Made by a program: the position numbers and the translations under genes. A stretch of 64,000 bases of DNA, taken from positions 17,906-81,905 of IMG/VR virus record IMGVR_UViG_3300047445_000153. One strand, 5' to 3'. Position 1 is the stretch's first letter. Each line of letters starts with the position of its first letter. Origin of the DNA: a virus. The notes under the pieces were generated by a model that ran no database searches, was not told the origin of the DNA, and saw only the letters and a list, made by a program, of their open reading frames with translations. Of this stretch, positions 18,243-56,987 are shown in pieces.

Positions 18243-18299
18243 TTGGACCAACGTAAACGCTCCCCTTAAAATTTCGGCACTCACCACCACCACGAGTGC
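18243..18299 (+). promoter_or_regulatory. Lysis promoter and leader hairpin
   Basis: TTGGAC-N18-TAAAAT then GCACTC-ACCACCACCAC-GAGTGC ending 3 nt before endolysin ATG. Confidence 0.55.
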
Positions 18300-18302
18300 T
18301 CG

Positions 18303-18836
18303 ATGTCCATCACCGCCGCCCAGCTCCAGAGGGTTTGGAAGCGCGCGCCGGCCGCGCGCTGTGCCCTGTTCGCCCCACTTCTCTCCGACGCGATGGCTCG
18401 CTTCGGTATCGACACGCTCGAAGAGACGGCCGAGTTCATCGCGCAGGTCTCGCACGAGTCTGGAGAAGGCCAGTGGCTTGAAGAGATTGCGAGCGGCAAG
18501 GCCTATGAAGGCCGCTTGGATCTCGGCAATACCGAGCCGGGGGACGGGGAAAAGTTTAAGGGTCACGGGATGATCCAGTGTACTGGCCGCAAGAACCATC
18601 TCTTGATGGGAATGCTGCTTGGCCTGGACCTCATCGCCAACCCTCGCCTGCTGTGTGAACCGAAGAACGCGTGTGACAGCGCTGCGGCTTTCTGGTGGAA
18701 CCACAAGCTCGACGACCTCGCGGCCAAGAAGGACTTCGTCAAGGTGACGAAGGTGGTCAACGGCGGTACGAACGGTCTAGCGGAACGGCAAGCCTACCTT
18801 GCACTCGCCCGCGCAGCGCTCACGGAGATTGCATAA
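18303..18836 (+). CDS. Endolysin, glycoside hydrolase family 19
   Basis: FIAQVSHESG, YEGRLDLGNTEPGDGEKFKGHGMIQCTGRKN, VNGGTNGLAER. Confidence 0.92.
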   Translation: MSITAAQLQRVWKRAPAARCALFAPLLSDAMARFGIDTLEETAEFIAQVSHESGEGQWLEEIASGKAYEGRLDLGNTEPGDGEKFKGHGMIQCTGRKNHLLMGMLLGLDLIANPRLLCEPKNACDSAAAFWWNHKLDDLAAKKDFVKVTKVVNGGTNGLAERQAYLALARAALTEIA

Positions 18837-19223
18837 ATGAACCGGAAAGACTTCTTCTTCAGAGCAGCTTTCACGACATGGGCGTTGATCGTAGCTGGAA
18901 TCGCCGTGGTGAATTCGATGGATGTCGGTGGTTGGACCTTCACCGGAATCATGGTGGCAGTAAGCGTCCTGCTGGTTGCTGACCTGCTGGTCAATGACCT
19001 TCTACCAGAGCGTTTTGTTTTCAAGCGGGCTATGGAGTGGCGGCAATGGGCCTACACGCTCGCGGCATTTTCCTACGCGTCACACCTGTTCGTTGCTGAG
19101 CAGTCAACTAGAAGCGTGCGTATAGACATGCTCGTTATTTACAGCTCGATGTCGATATTCGCTTTGATGTTGAGCTTCCGAAATCTTTTTCACGTACGGG
19201 GTCGAGCGTGCAGAGAACAATAA
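18837..19223 (+). CDS. Multi-pass membrane protein in lysis cassette (holin/antiholin-like)
   Basis: Three to four hydrophobic segments; position. Confidence 0.6.
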   Translation: MNRKDFFFRAAFTTWALIVAGIAVVNSMDVGGWTFTGIMVAVSVLLVADLLVNDLLPERFVFKRAMEWRQWAYTLAAFSYASHLFVAEQSTRSVRIDMLVIYSSMSIFALMLSFRNLFHVRGRACREQ

Positions 19224-19609
19224 AGCAGTGGGCCGTACTTCTTAGCCTCATGTGGTCGGTGACTGCGTATGCAGCCACTCACTCGGATGTCGCGTTCGGG
19301 GCTGACTTGGCCAGCATCCCGGTGATCGCCTACATGATCACCGTGATCCTGAGTGGCATCGGTGGTGCGGCCTTCACGCTTCAGCGCTTGTCAGCCGCCC
19401 CCGATCTATCGCGGTGGAAGCTTGAAGTCTCGAAGGATCTCGTGTGCGGGGTCGCCGCGGGTCTTGTCACGTTCTTCTTCTGCGAAGCAATGCACTGGTC
19501 TTCGACGAGTGAGGCTGGTGCGATCACGGTCGCTGGTTACGGCAGCTCGAAGGTACTTGACCTGTTCCTCAACCGCTTCACTCAGCAAGCCGGGGATGCC
19601 AAGCCGTGA
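19208..19609 (+). CDS. Holin-like protein
   Basis: Hydrophobic segments with GIGG, CGVAAGLVTF, AGYGSSKVLD pattern. Confidence 0.7.
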   Translation: MQRTIKQWAVLLSLMWSVTAYAATHSDVAFGADLASIPVIAYMITVILSGIGGAAFTLQRLSAAPDLSRWKLEVSKDLVCGVAAGLVTFFFCEAMHWSSTSEAGAITVAGYGSSKVLDLFLNRFTQQAGDAKP

Positions 19610-20103
19610 AAATCACCTTGATCGTTTCAGCCATAGTCGGATTGCTTGGGACTGCTATGGGATGGGGACTCACGCACGGTTATTACCGCAGCGTGCTGGC
19701 TGAGAACGCATTGGCCCTCTCTCAAGCGCAGCAACGCGCGGATTCACTCGCGCTCTTCGCACAAACCCAGTCGACGCTGGTCATCAACCAGATCGACGCG
19801 ACCTATCAGGAAAAGCTCCATGAACAAGATGCTCTCCACGCTCGCGATCTCGCTGATGTTCGTTCCGGTGCTCTGCGGTTGCGGGACTCCGGCGCCAAGT
19901 GCCCCGCCCAAGTTTCAGCTGCCCCCGGCGCCAGCGTCGGTGACGGTCAAGCAGGAGCCGAACTTTCGGCTGCGGCTACTGAATTTCTTCTCAGTGAAGC
20001 CGAACGAGCTGACCGCGTCGCCATTCAGCTTGGCGCCTGCCAACAAGTAATCGAGTCCGACCGCAAGACCCTTGACCAACTCTTCAACAGGATTTCTGAA
20101 TGA
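19606..20103 (+). CDS. i-spanin (Rz-like)
   Basis: N-terminal TM; DVRSGALRL and EAERADRVAIQLGACQ. Confidence 0.85.
   Translation: MKITLIVSAIVGLLGTAMGWGLTHGYYRSVLAENALALSQAQQRADSLALFAQTQSTLVINQIDATYQEKLHEQDALHARDLADVRSGALRLRDSGAKCPAQVSAAPGASVGDGQAGAELSAAATEFLLSEAERADRVAIQLGACQQVIESDRKTLDQLFNRISE
19820..20050 (+). CDS. o-spanin lipoprotein (Rz1-like), embedded in the +1 frame
   Basis: MNKMLSTLAISLMFVPVLCG-C lipobox and Pro-rich mature part, fully nested in Rz. Confidence 0.8.
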   Translation: MNKMLSTLAISLMFVPVLCGCGTPAPSAPPKFQLPPAPASVTVKQEPNFRLRLLNFFSVKPNELTASPFSLAPANK

Positions 20104-23100: not shown

Positions 23101-24317
23101 CGGCTGCGATCGCAGCTGCGGGCACGGGTGGTGGCGGCACGACCACGGTGCGGCAGACGGCGCTGCGCAACTGGAAGAAGTCGAACACCAGCAAGATCGC
23201 GGCGCTCATGGGCCGTGGCCAGTCTGGTTTCGGCCGTGGCCGGATCCTCGGCATCGGCGACTCGTTCACGGCGGGGTTCGCGGGAGCAGGCACGTCCTTC
23301 ACGAACGGACGCTCGCAGTCGTTCCTCACGCATCTCGCCCGAGCGATGGCCGCACGGGGCATGAAGGCGACGGCGGATTGGGCGGTGGGTGACGGCAACT
23401 CGGGCGACGTGCCGCTGGTCTACGATCCGCGACTGGTGCTCAGCGGGGGTGCGAGCCTGCTGGATACCTCTTTCAAGTGCCTCGGTGGCAGCGGCTGGAC
23501 GATGGATGGTACCGGCAACCGGATCACCTTCACGCCGGTGGACGCGGCAGGCGTGGCGATTGCGTTCGACACGGTCGAAGTGCTGGTGATGTGTAACAAC
23601 AACACCGGGGTGTCGGGCAACTTCGACGTGTTCTACAACGGCAATTTCACCACGCCTGCGCAGACGGTCACCAGCAACGACATCATGGGCGTGAAGAAGG
23701 TCACGCTCACGGTGCCCGGTGCGGCTGGCACGACGGCGAACTCGGTGACGTTCCAGCGCAAGACCAATACGACGTTCATCGCGGCGGTCGGCACGCGGGT
23801 TGCATCCAAACCCGGCATCGAGATCATCAACGCGGGTAGCACGGGCACGCCGCTGGCGACGTATGCAGCAGCCCCCGGCTCTACCAGCGGCTCGGGTGAC
23901 TCGAACACGTGGAACACGCGTGCAGCGGCGAACGTGCTGATGGACACGAACGCGGTCAACGTGACGTTTATCAACGGCTGGTACAACGACAAGGATGCAG
24001 CCTCGACGATCGCCGCCACGCAGACGCAGCTCGCCAACCTGATCACCGCCGCGAAGGCTTGGGGTGATGTGGTCTTCATCGGCTACGCGCCGCTCGACCC
24101 GAGCGACACCACGCTGACCCTCTACAACCAGTGGCAGGATGCGATGTATGCGACGTGTATCGCCGCTGACATCCCGATCATCGATCCGCCCGCACTGCTG
24201 CCGGTGTATGCAACCGGCGTGTCGTACGGGCTGTACGGTGACTCGCTGCACTTGAACGGTTCCGGCCATGCGCTCATCGCGCGATCCATCCTCGAAGCTA
24301 TGAGTGACATCGCGTAA
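20100..24317 (+). CDS. Large fibre/tailspike: Ala-rich stalk, fibre repeats, parallel beta-helix and C-terminal SGNH esterase
   Basis: Collagen-like GDPGPAGPAG; six SPAFTGNPTAPT..DNDT..ATTAFV-type repeats; GGTDDT..L..AL beta-helix start; SGNH blocks GDSF, INAG..G, WYND, DSLH. Confidence 0.82.
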   Translation: MTTNTGVPTNPDGQTLALVVAPVLSTTPHAASKILYGSGAPSASIGVDGDFYRNLDNDDMYGPKLAGAWPDGYSIRGFQGDPGPAGPAGLLDPEQLDDIETSAEAAAASAAASAQSAVAAAASATAANTSKVAAGTSATNAAASETASNASKVAAAASATAASGFATQAASSNTGATTAATDSAASATAANASKIAAGISETNAAASAVAANTSKVAAGVSEGNAAAAAVAAGIARDEAQTAAQQALQGAAPIVSPAFTGNPTAPTPATSDNDTSVATTAFVKAAIAAAGGGGGGAVSTVAGRTGDILLTIADVTGGAPLASPTFTGDPKAPTPATSDNDTSIATTAFVKAQAYAPLLSPALTGTPTAPTAAAGTSTTQLATTAFVTAAMAAGAGSGDAGVRFVESFPSGGTDDTTQLTNALAWLQAAPRRTLAMQHNKAYTLGHQITVQGASWFRIEVNGATIKAANGMPCQFGDWMLNFVSCTDGVIVDLNLDGNRANRPVVVGLQEAHNIRVWNNCKRITFVRTQSDNGCCDGFYIGADDVTNLSTFPTDIRQIDCGANNSFRNGLSLINSVNFEDYRGAYNNSVGTAPEDGVDCEPNGDVASGDLGNINPRFYHTTANGNSGLGFQIFLDSNHGVKLYDVTASGNISGAVSAFRGGVEIYGITLEGRPGMDTDRGVIDLAGAGAGLSVIKDVVARDYITNDNDLRPIVFVDVDVAGPVTVDNVKTFDCDCPILIANSPVELAQNLEAHGQMGGYTVKLMAGADQSTLKGITAHDGQLGVYVNAPDVSVNDVKLHNLEVTAPLIVFDTGALRPSLDGVELFQDAGVPSGQIGVSFAQAPVRATNIVGHVRTGTAWTPTTLISFAGGTTGSLIANNSPSTVSSGVAPLASPAFTGNPTAPTPATSDNDTSVATTAFVKAAIAAAGTGSGAPLDSPVFTGNPTAPTPATSDNDTSLATTAFVKAQAYAPLASPAFTGNPTAPTPSAGDNDTSVATTAFVTAAIAAAGTGGGGTTTVRQTALRNWKKSNTSKIAALMGRGQSGFGRGRILGIGDSFTAGFAGAGTSFTNGRSQSFLTHLARAMAARGMKATADWAVGDGNSGDVPLVYDPRLVLSGGASLLDTSFKCLGGSGWTMDGTGNRITFTPVDAAGVAIAFDTVEVLVMCNNNTGVSGNFDVFYNGNFTTPAQTVTSNDIMGVKKVTLTVPGAAGTTANSVTFQRKTNTTFIAAVGTRVASKPGIEIINAGSTGTPLATYAAAPGSTSGSGDSNTWNTRAAANVLMDTNAVNVTFINGWYNDKDAASTIAATQTQLANLITAAKAWGDVVFIGYAPLDPSDTTLTLYNQWQDAMYATCIAADIPIIDPPALLPVYATGVSYGLYGDSLHLNGSGHALIARSILEAMSDIA

Positions 24318-24347
24318 CAACCCTGTTGTTTCCGTAGTCGTCCGTTT

Positions 24348-24373
24348 GGGAGCCTTCGTGGCTCCCTTTTTTT
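24348..24373 (+). terminator. Intrinsic terminator
   Basis: GGGAGCC-TTCGT-GGCTCCC plus T7. Confidence 0.9.
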
Positions 24374-24385
24374 ATGTATGATGAA

Positions 24386-24413
24386 CTAGTCGACGGCCTA
24401 GCTAGCTAGCTAG
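24386..24413. repeat. CTAG array upstream of parA (candidate centromere/operator)
   Basis: CTAG at 24386 and (CTAG)4 at 24398-24413. Confidence 0.55.
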
Positions 24414-24522
24414 TTTGTTGTCAAGCGTGCGTCTAATCGGGTCAACCTCCATCCACGGAGTTGAACTCCACCGCTCGATAGTCTATCCTCCTGCAACAAT
24501 CCATCATAACTAGGAGCGCAGG

Positions 24523-25191
24523 ATGACTGTCGTTGCGTTAGCCGTAGAGAAGGGTGGTGTGGGGAAAAGCAACCTGACGGAATCGTTAGCCGCGCTGCGC
24601 GCTGGGTTGAAGTACCGCGTGGCGATCTTGGACCTAGACCGTCAGGCGTCCACCAGCAAGTGGGGCTTGCGAAGAAAGGACACAGGAGGTCTTCCTCACG
24701 TCCACATAGAGAGGGGGGCGGGTGTCGACGAGGTCGTCGTGCTGGAGGACTTTAGGCGTCGGTTGTCGGACCTGAAGCAAGCGTATCAGGACGTGTTCAT
24801 TGATGTCGGGGGGCAGGACAACGGGCTGTTCCGCGAAACGCTTTTGTTGGCGGATAAGGTCGTGGCCCCGTTGGTGCCTGGACCCGCAGAAGCCGACACA
24901 GTCATCGACCTTGCGAACACGCTGCGCGGCATGAGGCAACGCCCGGACGTCCGCGTGGTGCTGAACATGGTCAGCGGGATGCCGAACCTGTTACGCGTCA
25001 TGCAAAGCACACTGGACGACCACAAGGATGTCTTGCCGACCGTTGGCTTCACGATCGGTCGGCGCGTCGCGTTCCCGTACGCGAGCGCGGCAGGGAAGGG
25101 CGTGAGCGAGCTGGCCACCCGCAAGGAAGGGTTTGATCCTGCTGCTGCAAATGATCTGCGCAGCCTTTACTTGGAGATTTTCGGAAAATGA
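24523..25191 (+). CDS. parA: ParA partition ATPase (type Ib)
   Basis: KGGVGKS deviant Walker A, DLDRQAS, FIDVGG; no N-terminal HTH. Confidence 0.92.
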   Translation: MTVVALAVEKGGVGKSNLTESLAALRAGLKYRVAILDLDRQASTSKWGLRRKDTGGLPHVHIERGAGVDEVVVLEDFRRRLSDLKQAYQDVFIDVGGQDNGLFRETLLLADKVVAPLVPGPAEADTVIDLANTLRGMRQRPDVRVVLNMVSGMPNLLRVMQSTLDDHKDVLPTVGFTIGRRVAFPYASAAGKGVSELATRKEGFDPAAANDLRSLYLEIFGK

Positions 25192-25586
25192 GCACAGCCC
25201 GATTCAACGCGAAGAGCAAGAAGGAGTTTTCCGATCTCGCGCCCGCAGAGGAGGGCGCACAGGCGGCTCCGGAGACCCCACCCGCTACTCAGCCCTCAGC
25301 AGAGCCTCAGCAGCCCGCTGTGGCCCCTCCTGTGCAGCAGCTGGTGGCAAACCACCCTCCTGCGAAACCGCCTTTGACTGCTCCAGCGTTGCCGCAGGGC
25401 TACGTCAAGAAGCGCGGTGTTCGAGACCGTGGCCAGCCGCTGAACGTGTTGATCCCGTCGCCACTGTTCGACAAGCTCCAGCAGACGGCGCGCGACCTGG
25501 GCGTCACGCAGAAGGACATCGTGGCCAAGGCGATCGAGAAGGAGCTGAAGCTGATCGAGTTCGAACTGGGGCAACCGGGCGGGTGA
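25188..25586 (+). CDS. ParG-like ribbon-helix-helix partition protein
   Basis: ATGA overlap with parA; disordered N-terminus; LNVLIPSPLFDKLQ..A..LGVTQKDIVAKAIE. Confidence 0.75.
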   Translation: MSTARFNAKSKKEFSDLAPAEEGAQAAPETPPATQPSAEPQQPAVAPPVQQLVANHPPAKPPLTAPALPQGYVKKRGVRDRGQPLNVLIPSPLFDKLQQTARDLGVTQKDIVAKAIEKELKLIEFELGQPGG

Positions 25587-25603
25587 CCGTGGATTTGCCC
25601 TAT

Positions 25604-25935
25604 TGGGAGGATTTCCGGGTTGCGTTAGTTCGGAGGAAATGGTTATCCACAAACGCTCGCGCGGGGTTTGTAGACGTTTGTATACGTTTGTAGGAGGCTG
25701 AGACCCTTCACCAGTAAGGCTTTGCTGGGAGCTATTGGGAGGATTTCCAGACGCATTGGGAGAATTTCCAGACGAACTGGGAGGATTTCCGGGTTGGTGA
25801 TTGGGAGGATTTCCAGACGAATGCCTGTTATCCACAGGTTTTGCCCGGAAATCCTCCCAGTGACAACGGATCGGGAGGGATGATAATCTAAACCCTCCCA
25901 GTCATCCGGCCTGCGACAACCCGGAAATCCTCCCA
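25604..25935. repeat. Iteron-type plasmid replication origin
   Basis: TGGGAG(G/A)ATTTCC at 25604, 25736, 25757, 25778, 25802, inverted at 25847 and 25923; DnaA boxes TTATCCACA at 25643 and 25828; three GTTTGTA 10-bp repeats at 25666-25695. Confidence 0.92.
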
Positions 25936-26691
25936 ATGAAACTCAAGCACGCGAAGGCTGCGATCGATTTAGTCGATCGGCATGTGACCCTGCATAACGA
26001 CCTTGTCGTTGCCTCGCATGGGCTGAAGACCCTGGCTGAACAGCGCATCGTGAAGTCGTGCGCGGCCAAGATCGACTCCGTGCGGCTTGAGAACAATCGA
26101 TACAAGATCAAGCTAAACGCGAGAGAGTATGCAGAGACCTTCGGGCTGGATATGGCCACCGCCTACGAGCAGCTGAAGAGCGGGTGCACAGAGCTGACTG
26201 AGCGGTGGATCGAGTGGTCGGAGACGGTGGTGAAGGAGAGGGGAGTCATCGCGCGGCATAAGGACCGCTGGGTGAGCGGTGCGACGTACGTCGACAAGGC
26301 GGGTTGGATCGAGCTGCGGTTCACGCCGGAAGCGACGCCGTTCCTGAACGTGCTCCGTGGCAACCACACGACCTACTTGCTGCGGCAGGCTGCGTCGTTG
26401 CGGTCGATCTACTCATGGCGGCTGCTGGAGCTGCTGATGCAGTTCAAGGACACTGGCTGGCGGCAGATGCCGATCAAGGACTTCCTCCGCGCGATGGACG
26501 CGAAGCCGAGCCATATGCAGAACTTCAAAGATGCTCGGAGGCAGATCATCGAAGTCGCGGTGAAGGAGTTGCAAGAGAAGGACGGGTGGATGATCGATTG
26601 GGATACCGTCCGGGAGGGGCGGAAGGTTGTAGGTATCAAGTTCAACTTCAAACGTGATCCTCAAGGAAAACTGGCCTTCACAGAGGCCTGA
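25936..26691 (+). CDS. Replication initiator, Rep_3 (RepB/RepE) family
   Basis: HNDLVVASH.L...EQRI, RWVS.A.Y, LRSIYSWRLLELL, IIEVAVKEL, GRKVVGIKF; adjacent to iterons. Confidence 0.92.
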   Translation: MKLKHAKAAIDLVDRHVTLHNDLVVASHGLKTLAEQRIVKSCAAKIDSVRLENNRYKIKLNAREYAETFGLDMATAYEQLKSGCTELTERWIEWSETVVKERGVIARHKDRWVSGATYVDKAGWIELRFTPEATPFLNVLRGNHTTYLLRQAASLRSIYSWRLLELLMQFKDTGWRQMPIKDFLRAMDAKPSHMQNFKDARRQIIEVAVKELQEKDGWMIDWDTVREGRKVVGIKFNFKRDPQGKLAFTEA

Positions 26692-26694
26692 CTT

Positions 26695-26910
26695 ATGCCA
26701 AAGCTTGCCCAGCTCGCTGGCCAACGATTCGGCCGACTGGTCGCGGTCGAGCGTGTACAACCCGAAATCCCGAGGGCTCAATGGCTCTGCGTGTGTGACT
26801 GCGGCGCCACAACTGTCACGTACGCGGAGAACCTTAAACGTGGCCGGACCAAATCCTGCGGGTGCCTCCCTCGGGAACGCGTGCGGATTTTTAAACTTCA
26901 AAAGACATGA
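26695..26910 (+). CDS. Small Cys-rich domain protein (type found N-terminal in phage HNH/AP2 proteins)
   Basis: LAGQRFGRL..WLCVCDCG..L.RG.TKSCGC. Confidence 0.7.
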   Translation: MPKLAQLAGQRFGRLVAVERVQPEIPRAQWLCVCDCGATTVTYAENLKRGRTKSCGCLPRERVRIFKLQKT

Positions 26911-27260
26911 CCCAGACGTTGCAGGAGATGGAGGCTGAGCTGGCCGCGCTGTACGCGAAGGTACAGGCAGAGAAGACGCGCGTACGTACGACCGCGCTCG
27001 AAGGCATTAAAGCCATGCTGGAGTCGGGCACGCTGACGGCTGACGATCTGCGGGAGCTGCTACCCCCACCCCCGCCTCCTGAGCGTCCCAGGCGGGACTA
27101 CAGGAGGCCTCCGAAGTATCGCGACCCTGAGAGCGGCGGCACGTGGACGGGGCAGGGGGCCGAGCCGAACTGGATCAAGGGCAAGAACCGAGACCAGTTC
27201 TTGATCGATCAGCGCTCCTCGATCTCGACCAGCTCGGGCTCGAACGTGAAGGGCTCGTAG
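26907..27260 (+). CDS. H-NS family protein
   Basis: N-terminal coiled coil; PPKYRDPESGGTWTGQGAEPNWI. Confidence 0.88.
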   Translation: MTQTLQEMEAELAALYAKVQAEKTRVRTTALEGIKAMLESGTLTADDLRELLPPPPPPERPRRDYRRPPKYRDPESGGTWTGQGAEPNWIKGKNRDQFLIDQRSSISTSSGSNVKGS

Positions 27261-27550
27261 GTCACCAGTGTGATGCCCCATGAGCCATTGAGTGGTGGCC
27301 ACCCTTCGACCTCGCCGCTGTTGAAGCGCTGCTCGGGGTCGAAGTGTTCAGCGCTCTCGGCCATGAACGTTGCGCAGAACATCTTCAGCACAGCGTCGAG
27401 GGGCGTGTCGTGCCTCAGCCGGTACTCGTGACCACCCCAGAAACTATTGATTTCGAGCAGCTTGTCTTCGGTCAAGATCTCGTGGTCGATCTCGACGGTC
27501 ATCTGGTAGCCGTCAGCGTAGATCAGGTTGTAGCGCTTTTTATTAGTCAT
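27209..27550 (-). CDS. DUF2528-like phage protein
   Basis: VEIDH..LT..KL.EIN.FW and EGWPPLNGS.GI. Confidence 0.65.
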   Translation of the reverse strand: MTNKKRYNLIYADGYQMTVEIDHEILTEDKLLEINSFWGGHEYRLRHDTPLDAVLKMFCATFMAESAEHFDPEQRFNSGEVEGWPPLNGSWGITLVTYEPFTFEPELVEIEER

Positions 27551-27791
27551 GAAACATCTCCTTGAACGCTTGGCGCTTCGCACGAACCGTCTCTAGCAAC
27601 TCGCGCTCTTTCTGTTTGTCCCGCTTGAGCATCGGCGCCCATGCGAGGTAGTGCTCACCGACTTCGCCGATCCACGTGCCGGTGACGAGGATGCCGCCGA
27701 CCGTCAGCAGCATGCACTTGGCGAGGCCGTGCTTGGGCTTCTCGTAGGTCCAGGCCACGGTCTGCGCGGCCACGTATTCTTGTGCTGTCAT
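27543..27791 (-). CDS. Hypothetical protein
   Basis: Overlaps both neighbours in operon. Confidence 0.6.
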   Translation of the reverse strand: MTAQEYVAAQTVAWTYEKPKHGLAKCMLLTVGGILVTGTWIGEVGEHYLAWAPMLKRDKQKERELLETVRAKRQAFKEMFHD

Positions 27792-28069
27792 GCCACATAC
27801 TCCTCGAATGAGAGTGCGACGTGCCCGTCCTTGAGGCCGTAGCCCGACTGCACGTGCGTAATGAGAAGGGTCTGGATCCAGCCGGTGTAGATGAGGGGAG
27901 CACCAGCTTGCATCTCCTCGAAGCTGTGCTGCGTCTGGTACAGCTCCAGAACGTCCCCCACCCGATAGCCCCGGTCGTTGAAGCGGATCTCGGCCCGCTT
28001 CAACCCATTGGCGACGTCGTCGAAGGTTTGAGGATCAGCCTTCAACAGATGAATTCTGCGTGTGGTCAT
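27788..28069 (-). CDS. DUF3850/ASCH-like protein
   Basis: HLLK..P..F..V..G.KRAEIR.NDRGY.VGD.L.L. Confidence 0.8.
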   Translation of the reverse strand: MTTRRIHLLKADPQTFDDVANGLKRAEIRFNDRGYRVGDVLELYQTQHSFEEMQAGAPLIYTGWIQTLLITHVQSGYGLKDGHVALSFEEYVA

Positions 28070-28276
28070 CTAATCTTCCTCCCTGAACGCTGTGCGCCGC
28101 GCGTGATGGCTCACTTCGAACCAGCCGCCGCAGCGGTGTTTGAACTGCTCGCCTTTGAAGTCACCCGCTTCCAGCTCACCGAGCTGGTTGCAGTGCGGGC
28201 AGTACACGTAGATGTCATTGCTGTTGCTCTCACGGTGATACTCCTTCACCGTGAGGATTTCGTCGGTTACGCTCAT
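28070..28276 (-). CDS. Small zinc-ribbon-like protein
   Basis: CPHC and downstream HRC; abuts neighbours. Confidence 0.5.
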   Translation of the reverse strand: MSVTDEILTVKEYHRESNSNDIYVYCPHCNQLGELEAGDFKGEQFKHRCGGWFEVSHHARRTAFREED

Positions 28277-28587
28277 TTGTTCTCCGTCACGATGGTTTCG
28301 GTCTCGTCGCGGCGACAGTTCTTGCCGCAGTTGACCGTGTAGTTGCGATCAGTCGTGACCTTGGCGTTCGGGCAGCTGGTGAAGAAGTGATCCGTTCTAT
28401 CAACCCGGAAGGCGTAAACCTTGCAGCCGTCCGCTTCACGGATCACGTGCGGCGTAGCCTCGCGCTTTTCGTCAGCTCTGCGCTGGCGTTCGCTCTCCTG
28501 ATGCCACTCGGACTGGTCGCAGCGGTACAGGCCGAAGCCAACAAGACCGATCACCCCGATGGTGATAGTGAAGTCTTTCCAGCTCAT
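28273..28587 (-). CDS. Membrane-anchored hypothetical protein
   Basis: N-terminal hydrophobic segment; EADGCKVYAF. Confidence 0.6.
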   Translation of the reverse strand: MSWKDFTITIGVIGLVGFGLYRCDQSEWHQESERQRRADEKREATPHVIREADGCKVYAFRVDRTDHFFTSCPNAKVTTDRNYTVNCGKNCRRDETETIVTENK

Positions 28588-29156
28588 GCTGCCTCCGTGA
28601 CGTGTGGTTTGCGCTTACGCACCGTGCCAGACGGCGACATGTAAAGCTCGTCTTGCGCGGCGCGCAGCAGGTTGAACTTGCGGTGTGCGTGGTGCTCGAC
28701 ATCGACGCCCGCGACGTACTCCAGATCGCGCAGGCACAGCAGCACGTCGGCCGCTTCACCACCGACTTCCTTCGCGTCGTACTCCTCGGATACCTCGCTC
28801 GGGAACACGGTCTTGCCCGTCACGCGCGAAGCCTTCAACGCCTGATTGGCCAGCGAGTCGCCGACAACCAGATGGATTGCGCCGGGGTGCGCGCCCGTGG
28901 CCAGACACAGCTCGACACACTCTTCGAGCGCACGCATTGCGATGGCCTGGGGCGTGCGCCTCGGGACGTCGAACCGCGTGCCGATGAAGTCGACGAAGAG
29001 ACCGATGTCGTCCGGCCGCACTTGATACTTCTGGAGGAACGACTGGAGTTTGACGCGCGTCTCGCGAACGGCCTTGCACATCTCTCCGGTCTTGTTGGCC
29101 TTATCGGCGATGTGGTCGACCATCTCAAGGACTCGACCGATGGCTGCGGGTGTCAT
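28584..29156 (-). CDS. MazG-like nucleotide pyrophosphohydrolase
   Basis: RALEECVEL and EAADVLLCL acidic helices. Confidence 0.55.
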   Translation of the reverse strand: MTPAAIGRVLEMVDHIADKANKTGEMCKAVRETRVKLQSFLQKYQVRPDDIGLFVDFIGTRFDVPRRTPQAIAMRALEECVELCLATGAHPGAIHLVVGDSLANQALKASRVTGKTVFPSEVSEEYDAKEVGGEAADVLLCLRDLEYVAGVDVEHHAHRKFNLLRAAQDELYMSPSGTVRKRKPHVTEAA

Positions 29157-29263
29157 GCTTTCCTCACGAAATGTTTTTCAGACGGCAGACAACACTTCTG
29201 TCCGGCTTCGAGTTCCCGCGTGCACCACCAGCAACGGTGGTCGTAGCGACAGAGCTTCATGGT

Positions 29264-29455
29264 TCACTCCGGTCGGGTGAACTCGCGCTTGGGCCAGACA
29301 CGGATCACCGGCATGTGATTGCCGGTGGCGAGCGGTTCCAGTGGCTCGCGGGTGACTTCGAAGTTCACGCCATGCTTGTCTGCGTAGTCGACCAGATCAG
29401 CAATTGTCGAGATGATCACGCGCTCGACTGCCGGGTCAATAAGGACGTTCTTCAT
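29264..29455 (-). CDS. Hypothetical protein
   Basis: 63 aa ORF on operon strand. Confidence 0.55.
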   Translation of the reverse strand: MKNVLIDPAVERVIISTIADLVDYADKHGVNFEVTREPLEPLATGNHMPVIRVWPKREFTRPE

Positions 29456-29500
29456 AGGATGCCTAATGAAAAGTTGATCATCGGTATTATGTCTAGTCGC

Positions 29501-29791
29501 CTAGACCCCACCGAAGGACTCGTACGGGCTGACGGCCTCGCGTTGCAGGATCGGCCCGATGCGGTCTACTTCCAGCTGGCGAGCCCCACCGTACGGGAAG
29601 CACATCGCATCCCAGGCCTCCGGCAGCTGGGTGTAGTGCCGGACCTGCTCGGGCGCGCTGTACTTGATCCCGTCGCCGTAGGCGTCGTTGAAGATCTCGC
29701 GCTTCTCGCGCTCGGCGACCCGACGTGCATGCGCCTCGTTGTCGGCCTCTACCACGACTGGGATCGTGATGTTGAGTTTGAAGATCGGCAT
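29501..29791 (-). CDS. Hypothetical protein
   Basis: Start overlaps kinase stop. Confidence 0.6.
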   Translation of the reverse strand: MPIFKLNITIPVVVEADNEAHARRVAEREKREIFNDAYGDGIKYSAPEQVRHYTQLPEAWDAMCFPYGGARQLEVDRIGPILQREAVSPYESFGGV

Positions 29792-30390
29792 CAGTCGGCC
29801 TCCAACTCAAGCACCCGCTCCAAGAGGCAGTCAGCCTGATGGTGCAGACCCGCCAACTCGTTCTCACGATTGGTGATGATGAAGTCGTAGAGCCAGTCGT
29901 CGAGACCACCTTCGCTGCTGTGGTCGCGCACAGCAGGCGGCACCCCCGGTCGATTCACGCGCACGAAGGTGACATCCACGTCGCCCGCGAGCATCCGGCC
30001 ACCTTCACCTTCCGGGTAGCGCCAGTCGTCGATGACGTACACGCGCGAGGGGTCCGCCCGGTGGTCGATGCGGATGCGGGTCATGGTGATACTGGCCCAG
30101 AACTCCGGGTGGATCTCGCGGCCGATGTCCCCGATCGAGCGCATGAGCTGGCGCGGCGTGATGCCGTACAGCTCGCTGATCGGCAGGTTCTTCATCTCCG
30201 GATCTTCCACGATGATCGCGGCATGCTCCGGTCGTACACCGGCTTCGATCAGCAGCTGTACGACGAGCGCCTTGATCGGGCCAGCGAAGCGGTGACGCCG
30301 CACACCGTGCGTGCGCTCCAGATACTTCGCGACGGTCGTCTTGCCGTGGTGCATGTCGCCTGCGAGGGCGATGATTCGTGGCTTGCTCAT
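29791..30390 (-). CDS. Deoxynucleoside monophosphate kinase
   Basis: IIALAG...GKTT, FAGPIK, TPRQLM..IG, DDWRY, HSSE. Confidence 0.85.
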   Translation of the reverse strand: MSKPRIIALAGDMHHGKTTVAKYLERTHGVRRHRFAGPIKALVVQLLIEAGVRPEHAAIIVEDPEMKNLPISELYGITPRQLMRSIGDIGREIHPEFWASITMTRIRIDHRADPSRVYVIDDWRYPEGEGGRMLAGDVDVTFVRVNRPGVPPAVRDHSSEGGLDDWLYDFIITNRENELAGLHHQADCLLERVLELEAD

Positions 30391-31370: not shown

Positions 31371-31424
31371 TGTTCGATTCAGGAGCGGTGGTGGACGCCC
31401 CTTTGCCTGTTAAAAGTTTTGTTT

Positions 31425-32003: not shown

Positions 32004-32024
32004 AGTCGTTGTGGTGGTGATCGG

Positions 32025-32375
32025 TTAATAAGTTTCAGGCGGTGCTGTGAACCACAGACGGCGCCTTTCTGTTGCTACCGCAGGCAGTGCGTACTGAATC
32101 AGGAACCCCTCCTGATCCTTCTTCTGCATCAGCGTTACCAACCCCTCGTCATGTTTGATGCGAGCAACAAACAAGGTATGGAGATCCCGCTGATTCCATC
32201 TGTACTCACCCGGTTGCCTACGGGCGATGATGAATCGATACAGCTGCGGGTCTCCCCAGTTGGAGAGATCAAGCTCCTTCATCTCTTCAACTACGCGCTC
32301 CACGGTGGTGGCGAGGAGCGCAGCGATATACGGGGGCGTACAGTTTTGATCCAACAGCGTCTTGATGTTTTCCAT
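32025..32375 (-). CDS. Hypothetical protein
   Basis: AAGGGG RBS; 116 aa. Confidence 0.6.
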   Translation of the reverse strand: MENIKTLLDQNCTPPYIAALLATTVERVVEEMKELDLSNWGDPQLYRFIIARRQPGEYRWNQRDLHTLFVARIKHDEGLVTLMQKKDQEGFLIQYALPAVATERRRLWFTAPPETY

Positions 32376-32387
32376 GATCCCCTTATT

Positions 32388-35545: not shown

Positions 35546-36154
35546 TCAGCTTGGGACATCGACAACTTGACCGGCAACAGAGAGGGAGGGATGCTTCGTG
35601 GAATGCTCGCGCACCGCGTAGATCACCTTCAACTGATGGAACACGTCGAACAGCGCGCTGTGTGCATCGCCGACGAACGGGATCTCGCGCTCGAACGCGG
35701 GCGGCTCCTGCGGCCAGTAGCGGCCACGGATCCACGAGTTCATGTCGTTGGTGTAGCGAAAGTGGAACGGGTTCGCGACCTCGAACTGGCGGAAGTAGCT
35801 TTCGAGGAACGGGAACTCGAAGTGAGAGGGCTTGGCCCACAGACGCAGCGTGTCGTTGTACGGGTCGGTCCCCACCTTGCACCACGTCACGAAGTCTTCG
35901 AGCACCTTCTTCGGTTGCTCGGAACGCTGCATGATGCTGGTCAGGATGTGACGCTTGTCCTTCAGCCACCACGCGCGTGTGTCTTCGTCGAAGTAGCGCT
36001 TCGGGGGGATCATCAGGCAACGGTCGAACGTCTCGGGCATGATCTCACCCGAGGCGAAGTCGAAGCGCACTGCTGCGATTTGGATGATCGCCGACGAACC
36101 GGGTTCGGTACCCGTCGTTTCGAGGTCGACCATTACGTCAAGATACTTTGTCAT
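35546..36154 (-). CDS. DEDDh 3'-5' exonuclease
   Basis: VMVDLETTG, IIQIAAV, HSALFD. Confidence 0.85.
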   Translation of the reverse strand: MTKYLDVMVDLETTGTEPGSSAIIQIAAVRFDFASGEIMPETFDRCLMIPPKRYFDEDTRAWWLKDKRHILTSIMQRSEQPKKVLEDFVTWCKVGTDPYNDTLRLWAKPSHFEFPFLESYFRQFEVANPFHFRYTNDMNSWIRGRYWPQEPPAFEREIPFVGDAHSALFDVFHQLKVIYAVREHSTKHPSLSVAGQVVDVPS

Positions 36155-36602
36155 TACTTTGGCCAGATAGAAGAAGTGCGAATCGTGGATGATTCGAGAA
36201 TAGGTGGTGGGCTATCTCGGACCACTTCACCGACATTGCATCATGGTCGATGAGAAACGCTGCGTTGATCACATACCACTCGCCGGTTGATTCCCGACGA
36301 ATGATGAATAGGTACTGCCCGCCAGCTGTGATAGCTTTGCGCGCGGCACGCCATTGGTTTTTGGAGATCATGCTGAGGCGAAACGACGGCTCGTGAGCCG
36401 TGCTCTTCACTTCAGCGTAGAACATCATCCCGTCCCACGTCACGACGAAGTCGGCGGGCTGGGCGTCCTTGATTGATTTCTTGAGACCAGTTGCTCCGCG
36501 CACGTAGGCGGTATCGGTCAGGCGCTCGACAGCCGCGCGCTTCCCGAATGGCGCAAAGAACGAGACGAACTCATCCTCCGCGTCTTTCCAGACGTGCTTC
36601 AT
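36138..36602 (-). CDS. PD-(D/E)XK nuclease, probable Holliday junction resolvase
   Basis: PADFVV...YAEVKST. Confidence 0.7.
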   Translation of the reverse strand: MKHVWKDAEDEFVSFFAPFGKRAAVERLTDTAYVRGATGLKKSIKDAQPADFVVTWDGMMFYAEVKSTAHEPSFRLSMISKNQWRAARKAITAGGQYLFIIRRESTGEWYVINAAFLIDHDAMSVKWSEIAHHLFSNHPRFALLLSGQSNDKVS

Positions 36603-36687
36603 TTTTCTTTGACTTTTACCAGTGGTGGTGGTGTCTGAGGATTATAAACAAGATGCAAGCTTTAAGGATCAATGTTGTAAAAAAGTT

Positions 36688-41659: not shown

Positions 41660-41687
41660 TGTTTCGATCCTGTTGTGGTGGTGGTGG

Positions 41688-42470
41688 TTACAGCATGAAA
41701 TCTTTCAGCACATCGTTGAGCACGCGATCATCGCGCTGGCCGACAACGAGGTTGTCGAAGATGTCTTGGAGCGGCACGTCGTAGAAGCCCGTGATCTCCC
41801 ACATAGCCTTGAGCGTCGCTTCGTTGGCCTTGACCCATTCGATGGTCTTCTTGCCGAGATTGAAGCTGCCAGCTTCGCTGTCCCAGCACGGCGTATAGTC
41901 TTCCGTGAAGTACTGAAGCCAGCGCTCGCGGTCGCAGTGCTCCCACGCCTTCGGGCCGAAGCCAGGGATGCCGGGGATCTTGTCCGAGCTGTCACCGACC
42001 AGCGTCTTCATCAACCGGACTTCGGTGAAGTCGGTGTGGGCGTAGCCGTTCTTCTTCGAGCCGATCATCGTCGTGTGCTGGCCGTCACACACGGCGAAGT
42101 AGTCGCCGTCAGTAGAGTGAATCCTGATGGCGTCCGTGCTCGGCTTGTAGTGGTTGGCAAGCTTGACGATCACGTCATCTGCTTCCCACCCCTTCAGCTC
42201 CAGCGACATGCAGCGCGTGAAGCGCAGCACCTGCTTGAACAGATCCGCTGTCTTGTAGAACTGGTCAGGCGCCGGTTGGCGTCCGACCTTGTAGCCGGGG
42301 AAGACCTTGCGACGACGCTCTTTAGCGCCGTGGCCATCCCAGCACCAGATGATCGTATCGAACATGGGGAGCATGTTCATCTCATACAACACGTCGCGGA
42401 TCGTGCCGTTCGCTTCGAACTTGATTCGAAACTGGTTGTTGCCATCTATCAGATGGAGAGTGCGTTGCAT
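41688..42470 (-). CDS. 5'-3' exonuclease / flap endonuclease
   Basis: LIDGNN, RRKVFPGYK, EADDVI, STDGD, LVGDSSDKIPGIPGFG.K. Confidence 0.92.
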   Translation of the reverse strand: MQRTLHLIDGNNQFRIKFEANGTIRDVLYEMNMLPMFDTIIWCWDGHGAKERRRKVFPGYKVGRQPAPDQFYKTADLFKQVLRFTRCMSLELKGWEADDVIVKLANHYKPSTDAIRIHSTDGDYFAVCDGQHTTMIGSKKNGYAHTDFTEVRLMKTLVGDSSDKIPGIPGFGPKAWEHCDRERWLQYFTEDYTPCWDSEAGSFNLGKKTIEWVKANEATLKAMWEITGFYDVPLQDIFDNLVVGQRDDRVLNDVLKDFML

Positions 42471-43280: not shown

Positions 43281-43368
43281 AATGCCTTTTCCTTTGAAAT
43301 GTGAAAGCGCCAGTTTCGGGTTCGTAAAACCTCGCGACTGAGTGGTGGGATCAGCAGCGAGTTCGAAG

Positions 43369-43418
43369 ATCATAGCTTCGATCTTCTAACCATTCAATCG
43401 GAACTAGACGATAGTTCC
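43369..43418 (-). promoter_or_regulatory. Promoter with upstream palindromic box
   Basis: Minus strand TTGAAT-N17-TATGAT; GGAACTA-N5-TAGTTCC at 43400-43418. Confidence 0.6.
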
Positions 43419-48403: not shown

Positions 48404-48478
48404 GATTCGATCCGTTTGATTGAAATTGTTATTCAGCGTCTCAGGTGGTGGTGTCACCAGTCGATACTGTTTTGCAGC

Positions 48479-50265: not shown

Positions 50266-50381
50266 AATCGTTTCTCGAAGCTGGTTTATTAAAAATGAGC
50301 ACGGCGCATCCGCCGTGCCGAAAACCCCGGTGATTAACCGGGTGGTGGTGAGTGAAGCACTAAACGCGAATTACAGCCGGA

Positions 50382-50615
50382 TTACAGCGAACGACTTGCC
50401 AGCACCGCATTGAATGCGCGGCCACGCGCGGTATTGCCGCGCAGCGCGTACTCAACGTCGGGATCTTGAAACTGCTGGGCGATGAAGGCCTGGAGTTCGA
50501 CACCGTCCCACTCCGGGGGCATCGTCTCGACCGCCTGGATGACCTTGTCGGTCACCGCTTTCATCTGATCTTTCACGTACTTCTTCTTCTGGGCCAGTGT
50601 CAACAGGGAAGACAT
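50382..50615 (-). CDS. Hypothetical protein
   Basis: AAGGA RBS; MPPEWDGVEL. Confidence 0.55.
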   Translation of the reverse strand: MSSLLTLAQKKKYVKDQMKAVTDKVIQAVETMPPEWDGVELQAFIAQQFQDPDVEYALRGNTARGRAFNAVLASRSL

Positions 50616-50795
50616 ACTTACATCCTTCAATGATCAAATCTTACAATGCCGCGCGAAATCTGTGGTGGGAGATTGCGCGGGAAGATGTGTGGTAAATACG
50701 ACATCCGGGAAAACCTGACCGCTTGAACAGGTTGACACCGGATTTCGTCCGGTTTCAGCGTCTGTATAAAGCGCTACCAGACACAGAAGGATCAG

Positions 50796-50845
50796 ATTGT
50801 AAGTTAGAACCTTGAAGGACGCACCTACAACTAGACGATAGTTCC
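50796..50845 (-). promoter_or_regulatory. Promoter with second copy of the palindromic box
   Basis: AACTAGACGATAGTTCC at 50829-50845; minus-strand TACAAT 27 nt downstream, same gap as the 43402 copy. Confidence 0.55.
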
Positions 50846-51608: not shown

Positions 51609-52250
51609 TTAGTCGTTGTAGAAGATGTGACCCTGTTCTTCGTAGAAGCTGTGGCTGAGATCCGCGTTCCAGTAGTGCTCCCAGTTGATGTAGCTGAACA
51701 TCGGGTGGTCTTCCGCGATCATCCCTGTCTCGACCGCCCAGTCCTCGGCGAAGTCCTTCGGGTTGTCCCAGTGGCCTTGATACGCGTTGCGGAACTTGCT
51801 GACCGTCACGTCCTTGATGTCGCCGCCCTGGCAGTCGTTGACGTAGATCATGAAGGCCTCGATCTCGTCGTCGCCGCTCAGCTCGCTCAGCTTCTCTTCG
51901 AGATCCGCGATCTCCGACATCGACGTGTACTCGCCAATCAGGCCGCGCGGGAAGCCTTCGTGGTCGTGGATCGCGTACTCCTCGGAGGCCGGCAGCTTTC
52001 CGGCACCGTGGCAGCGCTTGCACTCGATATGCTCGCCGGTATTGATGTCAACGTCGTAGCCATCTCCCTCGCAATCGGGGCAGTTGATCTCGACGTTCGG
52101 AAAGCGGCTTGTAAGGAAAACCTTGTCGCGGATCTCGTTCGAGAGATCATCGGCGTCCATGCCCTCGGTGTCGATCCACGTCCCGTGGAGGACACCATTG
52201 TTGTAAGAGGCCAGACAGGCGACGTAGATACGGCGTGTGGTGGTGGTCAT
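51609..52250 (-). CDS. ardA: Antirestriction protein ArdA with CxxCxGxG insertion
   Basis: RIYVACLASYNNGVLHGTWID, EEYAIHDHEGF, GEY, YQG.W....DFA, YINWE. Confidence 0.9.
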   Translation of the reverse strand: MTTTTRRIYVACLASYNNGVLHGTWIDTEGMDADDLSNEIRDKVFLTSRFPNVEINCPDCEGDGYDVDINTGEHIECKRCHGAGKLPASEEYAIHDHEGFPRGLIGEYTSMSEIADLEEKLSELSGDDEIEAFMIYVNDCQGGDIKDVTVSKFRNAYQGHWDNPKDFAEDWAVETGMIAEDHPMFSYINWEHYWNADLSHSFYEEQGHIFYND

Positions 52251-52338
52251 GATGCCTTCCTTGGCAGTAATGGAAATGAAAACAGCGCCCGAGTGGGCGC
52301 TGTCTCTAGCTTGCAGCTTGCTTGTGGTGGTGAGCTTT

Positions 52339-52563: not shown

Positions 52564-52602
52564 CTTCGATCCTTCAATGTGGTGGTGGTCGGGGATATTA
52601 CA

Positions 52603-53674: not shown

Positions 53675-53681
53675 GGCGACG

Positions 53682-55277: not shown

Positions 55278-55285
55278 GACGATCC

Positions 55286-55687: not shown

Positions 55688-55691
55688 GTCG

Positions 55692-56012: not shown

Positions 56013-56257
56013 CACTGTTTCTCCTCGATCTTGATGATCGGGTAGTTGAGCGTGGTGATGCGCGCGGGGAACGAGGGCGTGATGATCGCAACGCGCATCC
56101 CGACCTTGACCTCGGGGAAGTCGACGACCCACGTGCCGTTCCACACATCACCCTGAAACGGGCGGCAGTCGACGACGATGCCCTTGTCGTCGATATCCCA
56201 TTCGAGGAAGTCCTGGCCACGGTCCTCGAACTCGATGGTGGTGGTCTTAGCGCTCAT
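56012..56257 (-). CDS. Hypothetical protein
   Basis: IEFEDRGQDFLEWDI..G.VV.C.PFQ..VW.G. Confidence 0.6.
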   Translation of the reverse strand: MSAKTTTIEFEDRGQDFLEWDIDDKGIVVDCRPFQGDVWNGTWVVDFPEVKVGMRVAIITPSFPARITTLNYPIIKIEEKQ

Positions 56258-56558
56258 CATCTTCCTCGTCGTCATCTTCATCTGTGACGGGGACCATGCG
56301 CGTGCCAGCGAAGTGCTCGTCCAGCGTCTGCTGCACTTCCCGCGCTGCGTCGCGCCATGCCAGCGGGTGGATGAAGCCAAGATTGCTGAACTTCGCCTCG
56401 GCTTCCTCATCGGTGAGCGCGGCGACGGTGGTTGCGAACTTGCGCAGCGAGTCCATGACGAAGAGCTGAACGATCGGGCCGCTCTTGGCCCAGTTCATCA
56501 GGTGCTCGACCGTCTCAGCGTTGGTCGCGTGGCGCATCCGTTTCTGTTTCGTGTTCAT
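56247..56558 (-). CDS. Hypothetical protein
   Basis: Start follows repeated leader element. Confidence 0.6.
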   Translation of the reverse strand: MNTKQKRMRHATNAETVEHLMNWAKSGPIVQLFVMDSLRKFATTVAALTDEEAEAKFSNLGFIHPLAWRDAAREVQQTLDEHFAGTRMVPVTDEDDDEEDDER

Positions 56559-56566
56559 GATTCCAA

Positions 56567-56605
56567 TCCCTGTGGTGGAAGGGTGAAAGTGCGACGGTCG
56601 AACTT
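56567..56605. repeat. 39-bp leader repeat, copy 1
   Basis: TCCCTGTGGTGGAAGGGTGAAAGTGCGACGGTCGAACTT, identical to 56949-56987. Confidence 0.95.
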
Positions 56606-56939
56606 AGCTGTAGTACTTCACGGAGTCGATGATGCGCTCTTTGAAGGCGTCTTCGACATCGAGCTTTTCCACAAACGCTGTCAGCTGCGTTCGCGCGGCC
56701 TCGATCTTCGCCCTGCGCGCCGTTTCAGCTGCCCCGTTCTTGCAGTCGATCGTAGTCTCGATGCTGCTGAAGTTCGGGATGTAGCGGTCGCGTCGGCCGC
56801 AGGCGAAGTGGATATGCTCCCAGCGGCCACCGTGGGCGTGCTCGCGGATTTTACCGTTGCGGTCGGCTTCGACCCCGACAGTAACAGCGGGGGCACCGCA
56901 TTCGGGGCACGTCGTGTACTTGATGTACTGGAGTTGCAT
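56604..56939 (-). CDS. Hypothetical protein (CPEC motif) flanked by 39-bp direct repeats
   Basis: CPECGA..H.HG.RWE...F.CG. Confidence 0.6.
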   Translation of the reverse strand: MQLQYIKYTTCPECGAPAVTVGVEADRNGKIREHAHGGRWEHIHFACGRRDRYIPNFSSIETTIDCKNGAAETARRAKIEAARTQLTAFVEKLDVEDAFKERIIDSVKYYS

Positions 56940-56948
56940 GATTTCAAG

Positions 56949-56987
56949 TCCCTGTGGTGGAAGGGTGAAAGTGCGACGGTCGAACTT
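56949..56987. repeat. 39-bp leader repeat, copy 2
   Basis: Identical to 56567-56605. Confidence 0.95.

Follow-up and report, generated by a model that had tools for sequence, protein, structure and literature searches.

The nearest phage precedent for the element described here is provided by the start-associated sequences (SAS) of Cluster K mycobacteriophages. The SAS is a short asymmetric word, present in 11-19 copies per phage in a single orientation beside start codons, conserved between subclusters and not found in the host genome, and its role is thought to be translational; in the extended SAS an inverted repeat is added at about half of the copies (PMC3203893). In enterobacteria, CA-rich elements and ACA motifs in GcvB targets (yifK, dppA, gltI) enhance translation without a fixed position, CA repeats are reported, in work cited in the same paper, to stimulate even 3' of the start, and protein S1 is suspected to be the 30S anchor for such C/A-rich enhancers (PMC3879156). 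Single-stranded CA tails can act as standby sites (PMC5934652). Here we describe the heptamer CCACCAC, in fuller form (CCA)2-4C, in a 64,000-nucleotide stretch of viral DNA (hereafter the window), which covers bases 17,906-81,905 of the 81,905-bp IMG/VR virus record IMGVR_UViG_3300047445_000153, labelled G000. In this genome and its relatives the word gathers on the mRNA strand around start codons, where it seems to replace the usual Shine-Dalgarno sequence.

Like the SAS, CCACCAC keeps to one orientation, is linked to starts and is absent from the host genes sampled. However, the SAS is a 13-bp word with an AGGAG Shine-Dalgarno core, confined to the non-structural arm, where it stands 3-7 bp from the ATG, and its inverted repeats are themselves conserved (PMC3203893), whereas CCACCAC contains no G, either ends 9-16 nt 5' of the ATG or comes after it, is found in every arm and makes up the loop, not the arms, of its hairpins. 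With the C/A-rich enterobacterial enhancers it shares the G-poor, single-stranded character, the location on the mRNA strand in or upstream of ribosome-binding sites, the flexible spacing and the occurrence of downstream copies. Those enhancers are loose CA-rich stretches in host genes with ordinary Shine-Dalgarno sequences, and their key active unit is ACA (PMC3879156). The phage motif, in contrast, is an exact heptamer with a core that lacks ACA, has 20-35 copies per genome, stands in place of a Shine-Dalgarno sequence, often lies in a hairpin loop and is again missing from sampled host genes. CA-repeat standby tails are likewise unpaired C/A-rich stretches near the start, for which single-strandedness is required for raised initiation and S1 is suspected; they were engineered as (CA)6-8 upstream of a structured binding site (PMC5934652), whereas the phage motif is a natural, sequence-exact run of 7-13 nt with many copies in 8-nt loops. 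No description of the element was found in the literature searched, as judged by title and abstract and with subscription journals outside the scope.

The closest named relatives of G000 are the Achromobacter siphoviruses 2-1 and JWF, with about 68% nucleotide identity across parts of the replication arm, and the gene order is shared. Our own gene call gave 109 genes, arranged as two arms that converge and, at the left end, a short block that reads leftward. All 24 sequencing runs listed as containing DNA of the window are rhizosphere metagenomes, none of them an RNA data set, and a megablast of 20 kb against plasmid records gave no match. Four closer IMG/VR relatives (G001-G004) were used for comparison, and further relatives were obtained via the capsid gene. 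A first scan of host genomes with a replication-arm protein found no match; a second, with a capsid alignment, found a related genome, a putative prophage, in contig 1 of Burkholderia paludis MSh1 (G005; about 186-256 kb, L051-L054), with about 56-62% G+C in flanking DNA of about 67-71%. CCACCAC is a trait of a clade of JWF-like siphoviruses, of which one member or more is found within a Burkholderia genome.

CCACCAC occurs 45 times on the two strands of the window, compared with a mean of 8.04 in shuffled sequences; the largest count in a shuffle was 15, and none of 100 shuffles reached 45. By our gene call, 36 of the 45 matches, or 28 of 37 merged runs, lie on the sense strand. Sixteen of these 28 sense runs are intergenic, four lie just past a start codon (1081, 52237, 56236, 62876) and eight are deeper in open reading frames (ORFs). 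The intergenic DNA of G000 (8,827 of 81,905 bases, about 11%) holds 26 sense and no antisense copies, where about three would be expected, and in an unbiased ranking of all its intergenic 7-mers CCACCAC comes first, followed by its overlapping neighbours. Inside the genes of G000 the bias is not strong (17 sense, 11 antisense). A preliminary description of the window, made from its sequence alone, had proposed a phage-wide cis element, and these counts support one that is strand-specific and enriched in sense-strand leaders. Intergenic sense and antisense copies number 34 and 2 in G001, 28 and 2 in G002, 11 and 0 in G003, and 21 and 3 in G004, and the word ranks first or second among the intergenic sense 7-mers of all four; in the B. 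paludis prophage the counts are 28 and 1, and it ranks first. The sister phage 2-1 is without the pattern (3 and 2), its enriched leader words being AACTTTC and CACACA.

Among 114 intergenic runs of six genomes, 83 have two CCA units, 29 have three and two have four. The preferred flanks are (C/G)(A/T) on the 5' side and A or C on the 3' side. CACCACA has 11 sense copies in G000, and only some CCACCAC copies extend into CACA. In a related phage (G006 contig 1, 69464-69511) a long unbroken CAC-repeat run with 14 overlapping 9-mer matches lies on the sense strand of the leftward arm, as if the motif had expanded via slippage. In phage 2-1 (L007, about 23,400-33,700), CACACA stands 2-6 nt 5' of the Shine-Dalgarno sequences of small early genes, and AACTTTC(AA) directly 5' of AAGGA; we take the latter to be reminiscent of the T7 gene 10 'epsilon' enhancer.

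Motif copies gather near start codons. Across 491 genes of five genomes, 64 motif starts fall at -30 to -11 and 21 at 0 to +9, with a dip to 11 at -10 to -1, and from +20 onward each 10-nt bin holds 0-3 copies; the complement GTGGTGG is near zero in all bins. Run ends concentrate at -16 to -9. A sharp class of run ends at +14 comprises 13 genes of the form ATG-NCC-ACC-ACC-AC, and another 25 runs, many of them of the looped form, end at -60 to -36. At least 23 copies in the window are start-linked. The motif is also found 5' of capsid, fibre and endolysin genes, and in all genome arms. The start codon itself differs little: ATG is used by 65 of 67 motif genes and by 364 of 407 others.

Shine-Dalgarno sequences are weak or absent in genes with the motif but normal in the orthologues of phage 2-1. 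In the 67 genes that have the motif at -30 to 0, the median duplex energy with the 16S tail was -2.9 kcal/mol, 52% of them being weaker than -3; the comparison groups gave medians of -5.7 (126 genes that have a spacer and lack the motif) and -6.1 (258 tightly packed genes; Mann-Whitney, p = 7e-9 and p = 7e-16, respectively). Because the motif can occupy part of the stretch that is scanned, the test was repeated with motifs ending at -40 to -16 and scanning restricted to -16 to -3. The difference persisted in these 18 genes (median -3.1, against -5.5, p = 0.03, and -6.1, p = 2e-4). Orthologues were compared with phage 2-1 using only alignments that begin at both N-termini. In the 26 motif-bearing pairs, which come from about nine gene families and are not independent of one another, the motif genes had a median of -1.7 and their phage 2-1 orthologues one of -5.7 (Wilcoxon, p = 1.5e-4), whereas 88 other pairs showed no difference (p = 0.55). 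One relative, L031, has an ordinary AAGGAAAG 5' of its capsid gene at the place where others carry two CCACCAC hairpins. CCACCAC is not itself a Shine-Dalgarno variant: it is not complementary to the 16S 3' tail, and a Burkholderia 16S rRNA (L057), used because the draft assembly of B. paludis gave no 16S match, ends in the ordinary ...GGATCACCTCCTTT.

A separate word near starts is GGATCGAA, which has ten copies in the genome, all of them on the mRNA strand and most of them 2-5 nt 5' of a start codon (window 17671, 41663, 48406, 52565, 52660, 62210 and 62893; L025 562-569, 3159-3166 and 11566-11573). GGATCAA occupies the same place in relatives and in phage 2-1, and GGATCGAA looks like a family-wide extended ribosome-binding word.

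CCACCAC takes two forms, a linear G-free run and an 8-nt loop (U/C/A)CCACCAC on a GC-rich stem of changeable sequence. Among 126 intergenic NCCACCAC octamers of five genomes, 24 are flanked by a stem of at least 4 bp and 15 by one of at least 6 bp, where 1.9 and 0.44 are expected when the 5' and 3' flanks of different sites are swapped. None of 34 copies antisense to genes has such a stem, and 73 of the 126 octamers have no stem at all (0 bp). In an alignment of 36 such hairpins every one of the ten pairs has changed on both sides; four of them, the inner ones, had served as a selection criterion, and the count is therefore no independent test. A better test comes from 13 capsid-gene leaders picked by position alone. 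For these RNAalifold predicts a pair of hairpins, each with CCACCAC in an 8-nt loop, and at 9 of 15 base pairs the pairing survives changes on both sides. In G000 this tandem pair is found 5' of the capsid gene at genome positions 11,470-11,543, which the window does not cover. Stems also differ between phages at orthologous sites 5' of the thyX-like gene and at 36204, 43342 and 50662. The view that different stems around one loop point to selection on structure, put forward in the preliminary description, is in line with both this covariation and the display above chance. Whether looped or linear, the word is predicted to be exposed: the median unpaired probability is 0.84 for 141 intergenic copies and 0.56-0.71 for coding copies (p = 5e-8). 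As a strand test, G-U and A-C pairs were balanced under a symmetric rule (16 and 15); in the capsid-leader alignment, whose rows are close kin, U-G exceeds A-C at two internal pairs. Applied to the B. paludis prophage, a covariance model of the looped form (R1) detected four additional hairpins, each of them on the sense strand.

A role in translation initiation is indicated by the strand, by the spacing relative to the AUG, by the single-stranded state and by the Shine-Dalgarno sequences that were lost. We tentatively favour the interpretation that CCACCAC could well be a strand-specific, single-stranded RNA signal of translation-initiation regions, an enhancer or 30S standby site that would take over from the Shine-Dalgarno sequence. 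In such a mechanism the linear run, ending 9-16 nt 5' of the AUG or directly following it, would be read single-stranded, the looped form would present (U/C/A)CCACCAC on a GC-rich stem of variable sequence, and the C/A-rich run would be contacted by the small ribosomal subunit, with S1 as the prime suspect. Stimulation of initiation and the nature of the binder are what we infer here from the observed position, strand, structure, conservation and Shine-Dalgarno loss. Among the mechanisms offered in the preliminary description (an antitermination site, a translational operator, the target of an antisense RNA, a tRNA-3'-like processing signal), a translational one alone suits the pile-up of copies from -30 to +14 and the replaced Shine-Dalgarno sequence. 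An antitermination site does not fit the placement of the copies, and for the tRNA-like signal the window holds no tRNA and no Rfam match.

Several observations weigh against this interpretation. Some copies are distant from starts, being placed 5' of terminator-like hairpins (50342, 52324) or deep in ORFs. No generic use by the host is apparent: in 180 kb of B. paludis DNA adjoining the prophage, none of 153 genes has CCACCA at -30 to +20 and R1 has no match, as it has none in phage 2-1, although B. paludis carries a relative and may not be the host of the window phage. At E <= 0.01, with 150 of about 1,900-3,000 candidates scored per genome, R1 matched only G005 among five Burkholderia genomes (once in the prophage and once in contig 26), the other four giving none. 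The Burkholderia 16S rRNA contains no 7-nt complement of the motif and so gives no support to base pairing with it: GTGGTGG is absent throughout, and TGGTGG is found only at 89 and 249, two 6-nt matches being the chance level. About 10 nt of single strand are taken up per S1 molecule (PMC5934652), which is longer than the 8-nt loop, and an invariant heptamer in a tight loop looks more like the site of a specific partner than a generic landing pad. The gene starts come from our own simple caller, which rewards Shine-Dalgarno-like words, and the dependence among the orthologue pairs has also to be borne in mind.

A related but rather unlikely possibility is a translation system private to the phages, in which a dedicated reader would recognise the CCACCAC loop or run and, separately from host messages, either permit phage messages to initiate without a Shine-Dalgarno sequence or keep them silent in the carrier state. 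Such a reader might be a phage protein or RNA not recognised as such, or else a component of the host ribosome put to new use. If this were true, bacterial viruses would possess a counterpart of sequence-specific internal ribosome entry, with its signal present at 20-35 genes.

How bacterial ribosomes find start codons without a Shine-Dalgarno sequence is an open question, as is why CA-rich words stimulate translation, which is termed 'puzzling' in PMC5934652. The clade offers a natural case: one exact word with dozens of copies per genome, in linear and looped forms, and with sister-phage orthologues that have ordinary Shine-Dalgarno sequences. The related putative prophage is carried by a named, cultured strain, B. 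paludis MSh1, in which reporters, toeprints and ribosome profiling could be applied directly. In such phages, starts will be misplaced by gene callers dependent on Shine-Dalgarno words.

The main rival to an initiation signal is an operator at which a dedicated factor acts in trans. This factor, either an RNA-binding protein or a small G/U-rich RNA, of phage or host origin, would block or license ribosome entry on phage messages, which would amount to a phage-wide regulon at the post-transcriptional level, comparable to those of T4 RegA, GcvB or P1 C4. We consider this doubtful on balance, although much of the evidence fits it: the heptamer is invariant while the stems vary, it is displayed in 8-nt loops, the copies within -30 to +14 lie in the span covered by an initiating ribosome, the host genes that were sampled lack the motif, and the copies 5' of terminator-like hairpins at 50342 and 52324 are untied to starts. 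GcvB itself offers a precedent of a G/U-rich RNA that silences CA-rich enhancers (PMC3879156). No partner came to light, however. The UGGUGG antisense RNA suggested in the preliminary description has no conserved source in the six genomes, since GUGGUGG sites shared by at least three of them occur only on the reverse strand of motif sites, although such an RNA might be transcribed antisense to a site itself. Ten proteins present in G001, G002 and G004, with no match in phage 2-1, were scanned, and none shows an RNA-binding domain; five of the ten also match the B. paludis prophage. Pfam and PHROGs returned DUF2528, ArdA and unnamed families for these ten, and Atlas look-ups of the two basic proteins among them gave only unnamed viral clusters below 0.9 and no lead. 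Moreover, a repressor alone would leave the Shine-Dalgarno loss unexplained, and a phage-made activator could not serve the right-end genes, taken as early, because they carry the motif themselves.

In T7, RNase III sites shape the polycistronic transcripts, and CCACCAC might likewise mark endonuclease cuts or form protective hairpins at the 5' or 3' ends of RNAs that shape such transcripts. That sites lie between cistrons, that their stems are GC-rich and stable, that four sites stand just 3' of -10-like hexamers and so could be 5'-terminal, and that two lie 5' of terminator-like hairpins would all agree with this. Still, it seems improbable, because it explains neither the copies right after start codons nor the tight -16 to -9 spacing nor the loss of Shine-Dalgarno sequences, and more than half of the copies have no stem to be processed.

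We judge it very unlikely that CCACCAC is the initial transcribed sequence of a class of phage promoters. The preliminary description had noted -10 boxes just upstream of several copies. This applies to a minority: TANNNT lies 4-10 nt upstream of 17 of 125 sites, about twice the frequency at control intergenic positions (5.7%), with clear cases at 36641 (TATAAT) and at 18267 and 14150 (TAAAAT), whereas 108 of the 125 sites lack the hexamer and a -35/-10 pair is present at only two. Many of the A/T-rich words upstream are stop codons, and orthologous sites do not retain them; copies abutting or following the ATG would place the RNA start inside the gene, and covarying stems are not expected of a promoter.

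Lambda-type boxB/nut sites and the targets of P1 C4 and P4 CI number two or three per genome, at early promoters or in one operon, and each of these systems has a known phage-encoded partner. CCACCAC resembles them as a small hairpin or short word in phage leaders that is read as RNA. A boxB/nut-like antitermination site was raised in the preliminary description. A processive site of this kind, read by an N-like protein, would agree with a leader hairpin of conserved loop and variable stems but is hardly credible, since at least 23 start-linked copies occur in 64 kb, in all arms, inside operons, some 3' of the ATG or within ORFs and many of them unstructured, with a spacing that follows start codons and not promoters. 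Unlike the known systems, it has no partner that domain scans of the ten proteins or a search for complements could find; no boxA-like partner word is present among the enriched intergenic k-mers, an N-type protein not having been specifically sought. Equally remote is a DNA-level signal such as a Chi-like recombination hotspot, for although GTGGTGG resembles the E. coli Chi octamer, and the orientation flips with the two convergent arms so that the motif would face nucleases entering from the genome ends, enrichment is limited to the intergenic 11% of the genome and to start regions, coding matches have no strong bias, and loop display with covarying stems has no place in a Chi model.

All copies listed in the preliminary description are present in the window, and its seven hairpins were each recovered. 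On the plus strand, a 7-bp hairpin with an 11-nt (CCA)n loop (18276..18300) is followed by the ATG at 18303 of an endolysin homologue, which has no Shine-Dalgarno sequence. The other six lie on the minus strand. A 7-bp hairpin with the loop UCCACCAC (31381..31402) stands 17 nt 5' of the start at 31370 of the thyX-like gene, and its stem covaries in G001, G002 and G004. The hairpin at 36195..36219, with the loop CCCACCAC, has stems that differ in G001, G002 and L004 and lies 70 nt 5' of the start at 36133. Interrupted hairpins are found at 43331..43361 (loop UCCCACCAC, 61 nt 5' of the start at 43280, different stem in G001-G003) and at 50649..50680 (again loop CCCACCAC, 46 nt 5' of the start at 50615, unrelated stem in the same place in G004). 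A 4-bp hairpin CCCU / UCCACCAC / AGGG at 56568..56583, 13 nt 5' of the start at 56558, belongs to a repeated leader with a palindrome, and a second copy of the same hairpin and leader is present at 56950..56965, 14 nt 5' of the start at 56939. Two more hairpins are a 4-bp one on the plus strand, GCGG / ACCACCAC / CCGC (17645..17660; R1 score 23.5 bits), 72 nt 5' of the start at 17729, and on the minus strand an 8-bp one with a 13-nt loop containing CCACCAC (32294..32322) within ORF 32025..32375, where G004 has a hairpin too. Two of the copies that the preliminary description placed in leaders lie inside ORF 3' ends (17650 in 16347..17693 and 36204 in 36138..36602).

Linear copies on the plus strand are CCACCACCAC directly 3' of the ATG at 1077 (1081..1090; gene 1077..1505, a homologue of the tape-measure chaperone of phage 2-1) and CACCACCAC at 14172..14180, abutting the ATG of gene 14181..15662. 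All further sites are on the minus strand. The linear run CACCACCAC recurs at 32011..32019, 7 nt 5' of the start at 32003 of a MazG-like gene without a Shine-Dalgarno sequence; at 48445..48453, where the orthologous site of G004 is a GGCG/CGCC hairpin; at 50342..50350, 33 nt past a stop codon, 5' of two terminator-like hairpins and 76 nt 5' of the start at 50265; at 52324..52332, 8 nt past a stop codon and 5' of a terminator-like hairpin, an arrangement shared by G004; and at 62244..62252, adjoining the palindrome 62226-62240 and 39 nt 5' of the start at 62204. Linear CACCACCACCAC (36622..36633) is located 19 nt 5' of the start at 36602 and 7 nt 3' of TATAAT, and linear CACCACCACCA (59621..59631) is 11 nt 5' of the start at 59609, which has no Shine-Dalgarno sequence. 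The longer runs (CCA)4C (41675..41687, directly after the stop of 41688..42470) and (CCA)3C (52579..52588, linear) each lie 15 nt 5' of a start, at 41659 and 52563, and are each followed by GGATCGAA. Downstream of start codons, CCACCACCAC directly follows the ATG at 52250 of an ArdA-like gene (52237..52246) and the GTG start at 62889 (62876..62885); CCACCACCA (56236..56244), 2 nt past the stop of 56247..56558, lies just 3' of in-frame ATGs of the next gene, as read from the sequence.

The ArdA-like antirestriction gene (51609-52250) carries the motif twice, upstream before the terminator-like hairpin and directly 3' of its ATG. Its product has an inserted Cys-rich stretch with weak zinc-ribbon and Anti-TRAP matches, all below cut-offs. 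The leaders at 56566-56605 and 56948-56987, of about 40 nt each (palindrome plus CCACCAC hairpin), are near-identical and stand 5' of neighbouring small genes; the 22-nt palindrome part recurs 5' of the leftmost gene of the genome (L025 about 737-758). With one mismatch allowed, the 15-bp palindrome GTGCGAC-N-GTCGCAC has seven copies (window 56589-56603, 56971-56985, 62226-62240 and 62917-62931; L025 742-756, 2006-2020 and 2042-2056), three of which adjoin CCACCAC sites. These palindromes are likely operators of a dimeric DNA-binding regulator. The 17-nt word GGAACTATCGTCTAGTT is present in three long intergenic regions (window 43402-43418 and 50829-50845; L025 6402-6418; one copy with 2 mismatches) and may serve the replication and early arm as a promoter or as the site of a regulator.

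At 25603-25936 the window contains seven iteron-like copies of TTGGGAGGATTTCC, between an ORF with a ParA-like N-terminus, as judged by eye, and gene 25936..26691. The genes at 24763-26691 have no homologue in G001, G002, G004 or phage 2-1. The B. paludis MSh1 relative, which is circularly permuted, lies within a contig of host-like DNA; its junction matches about 42-45 kb of G000 (about 24-27 kb of the window), the site of the iteron block, which suggests a swap of the maintenance module.

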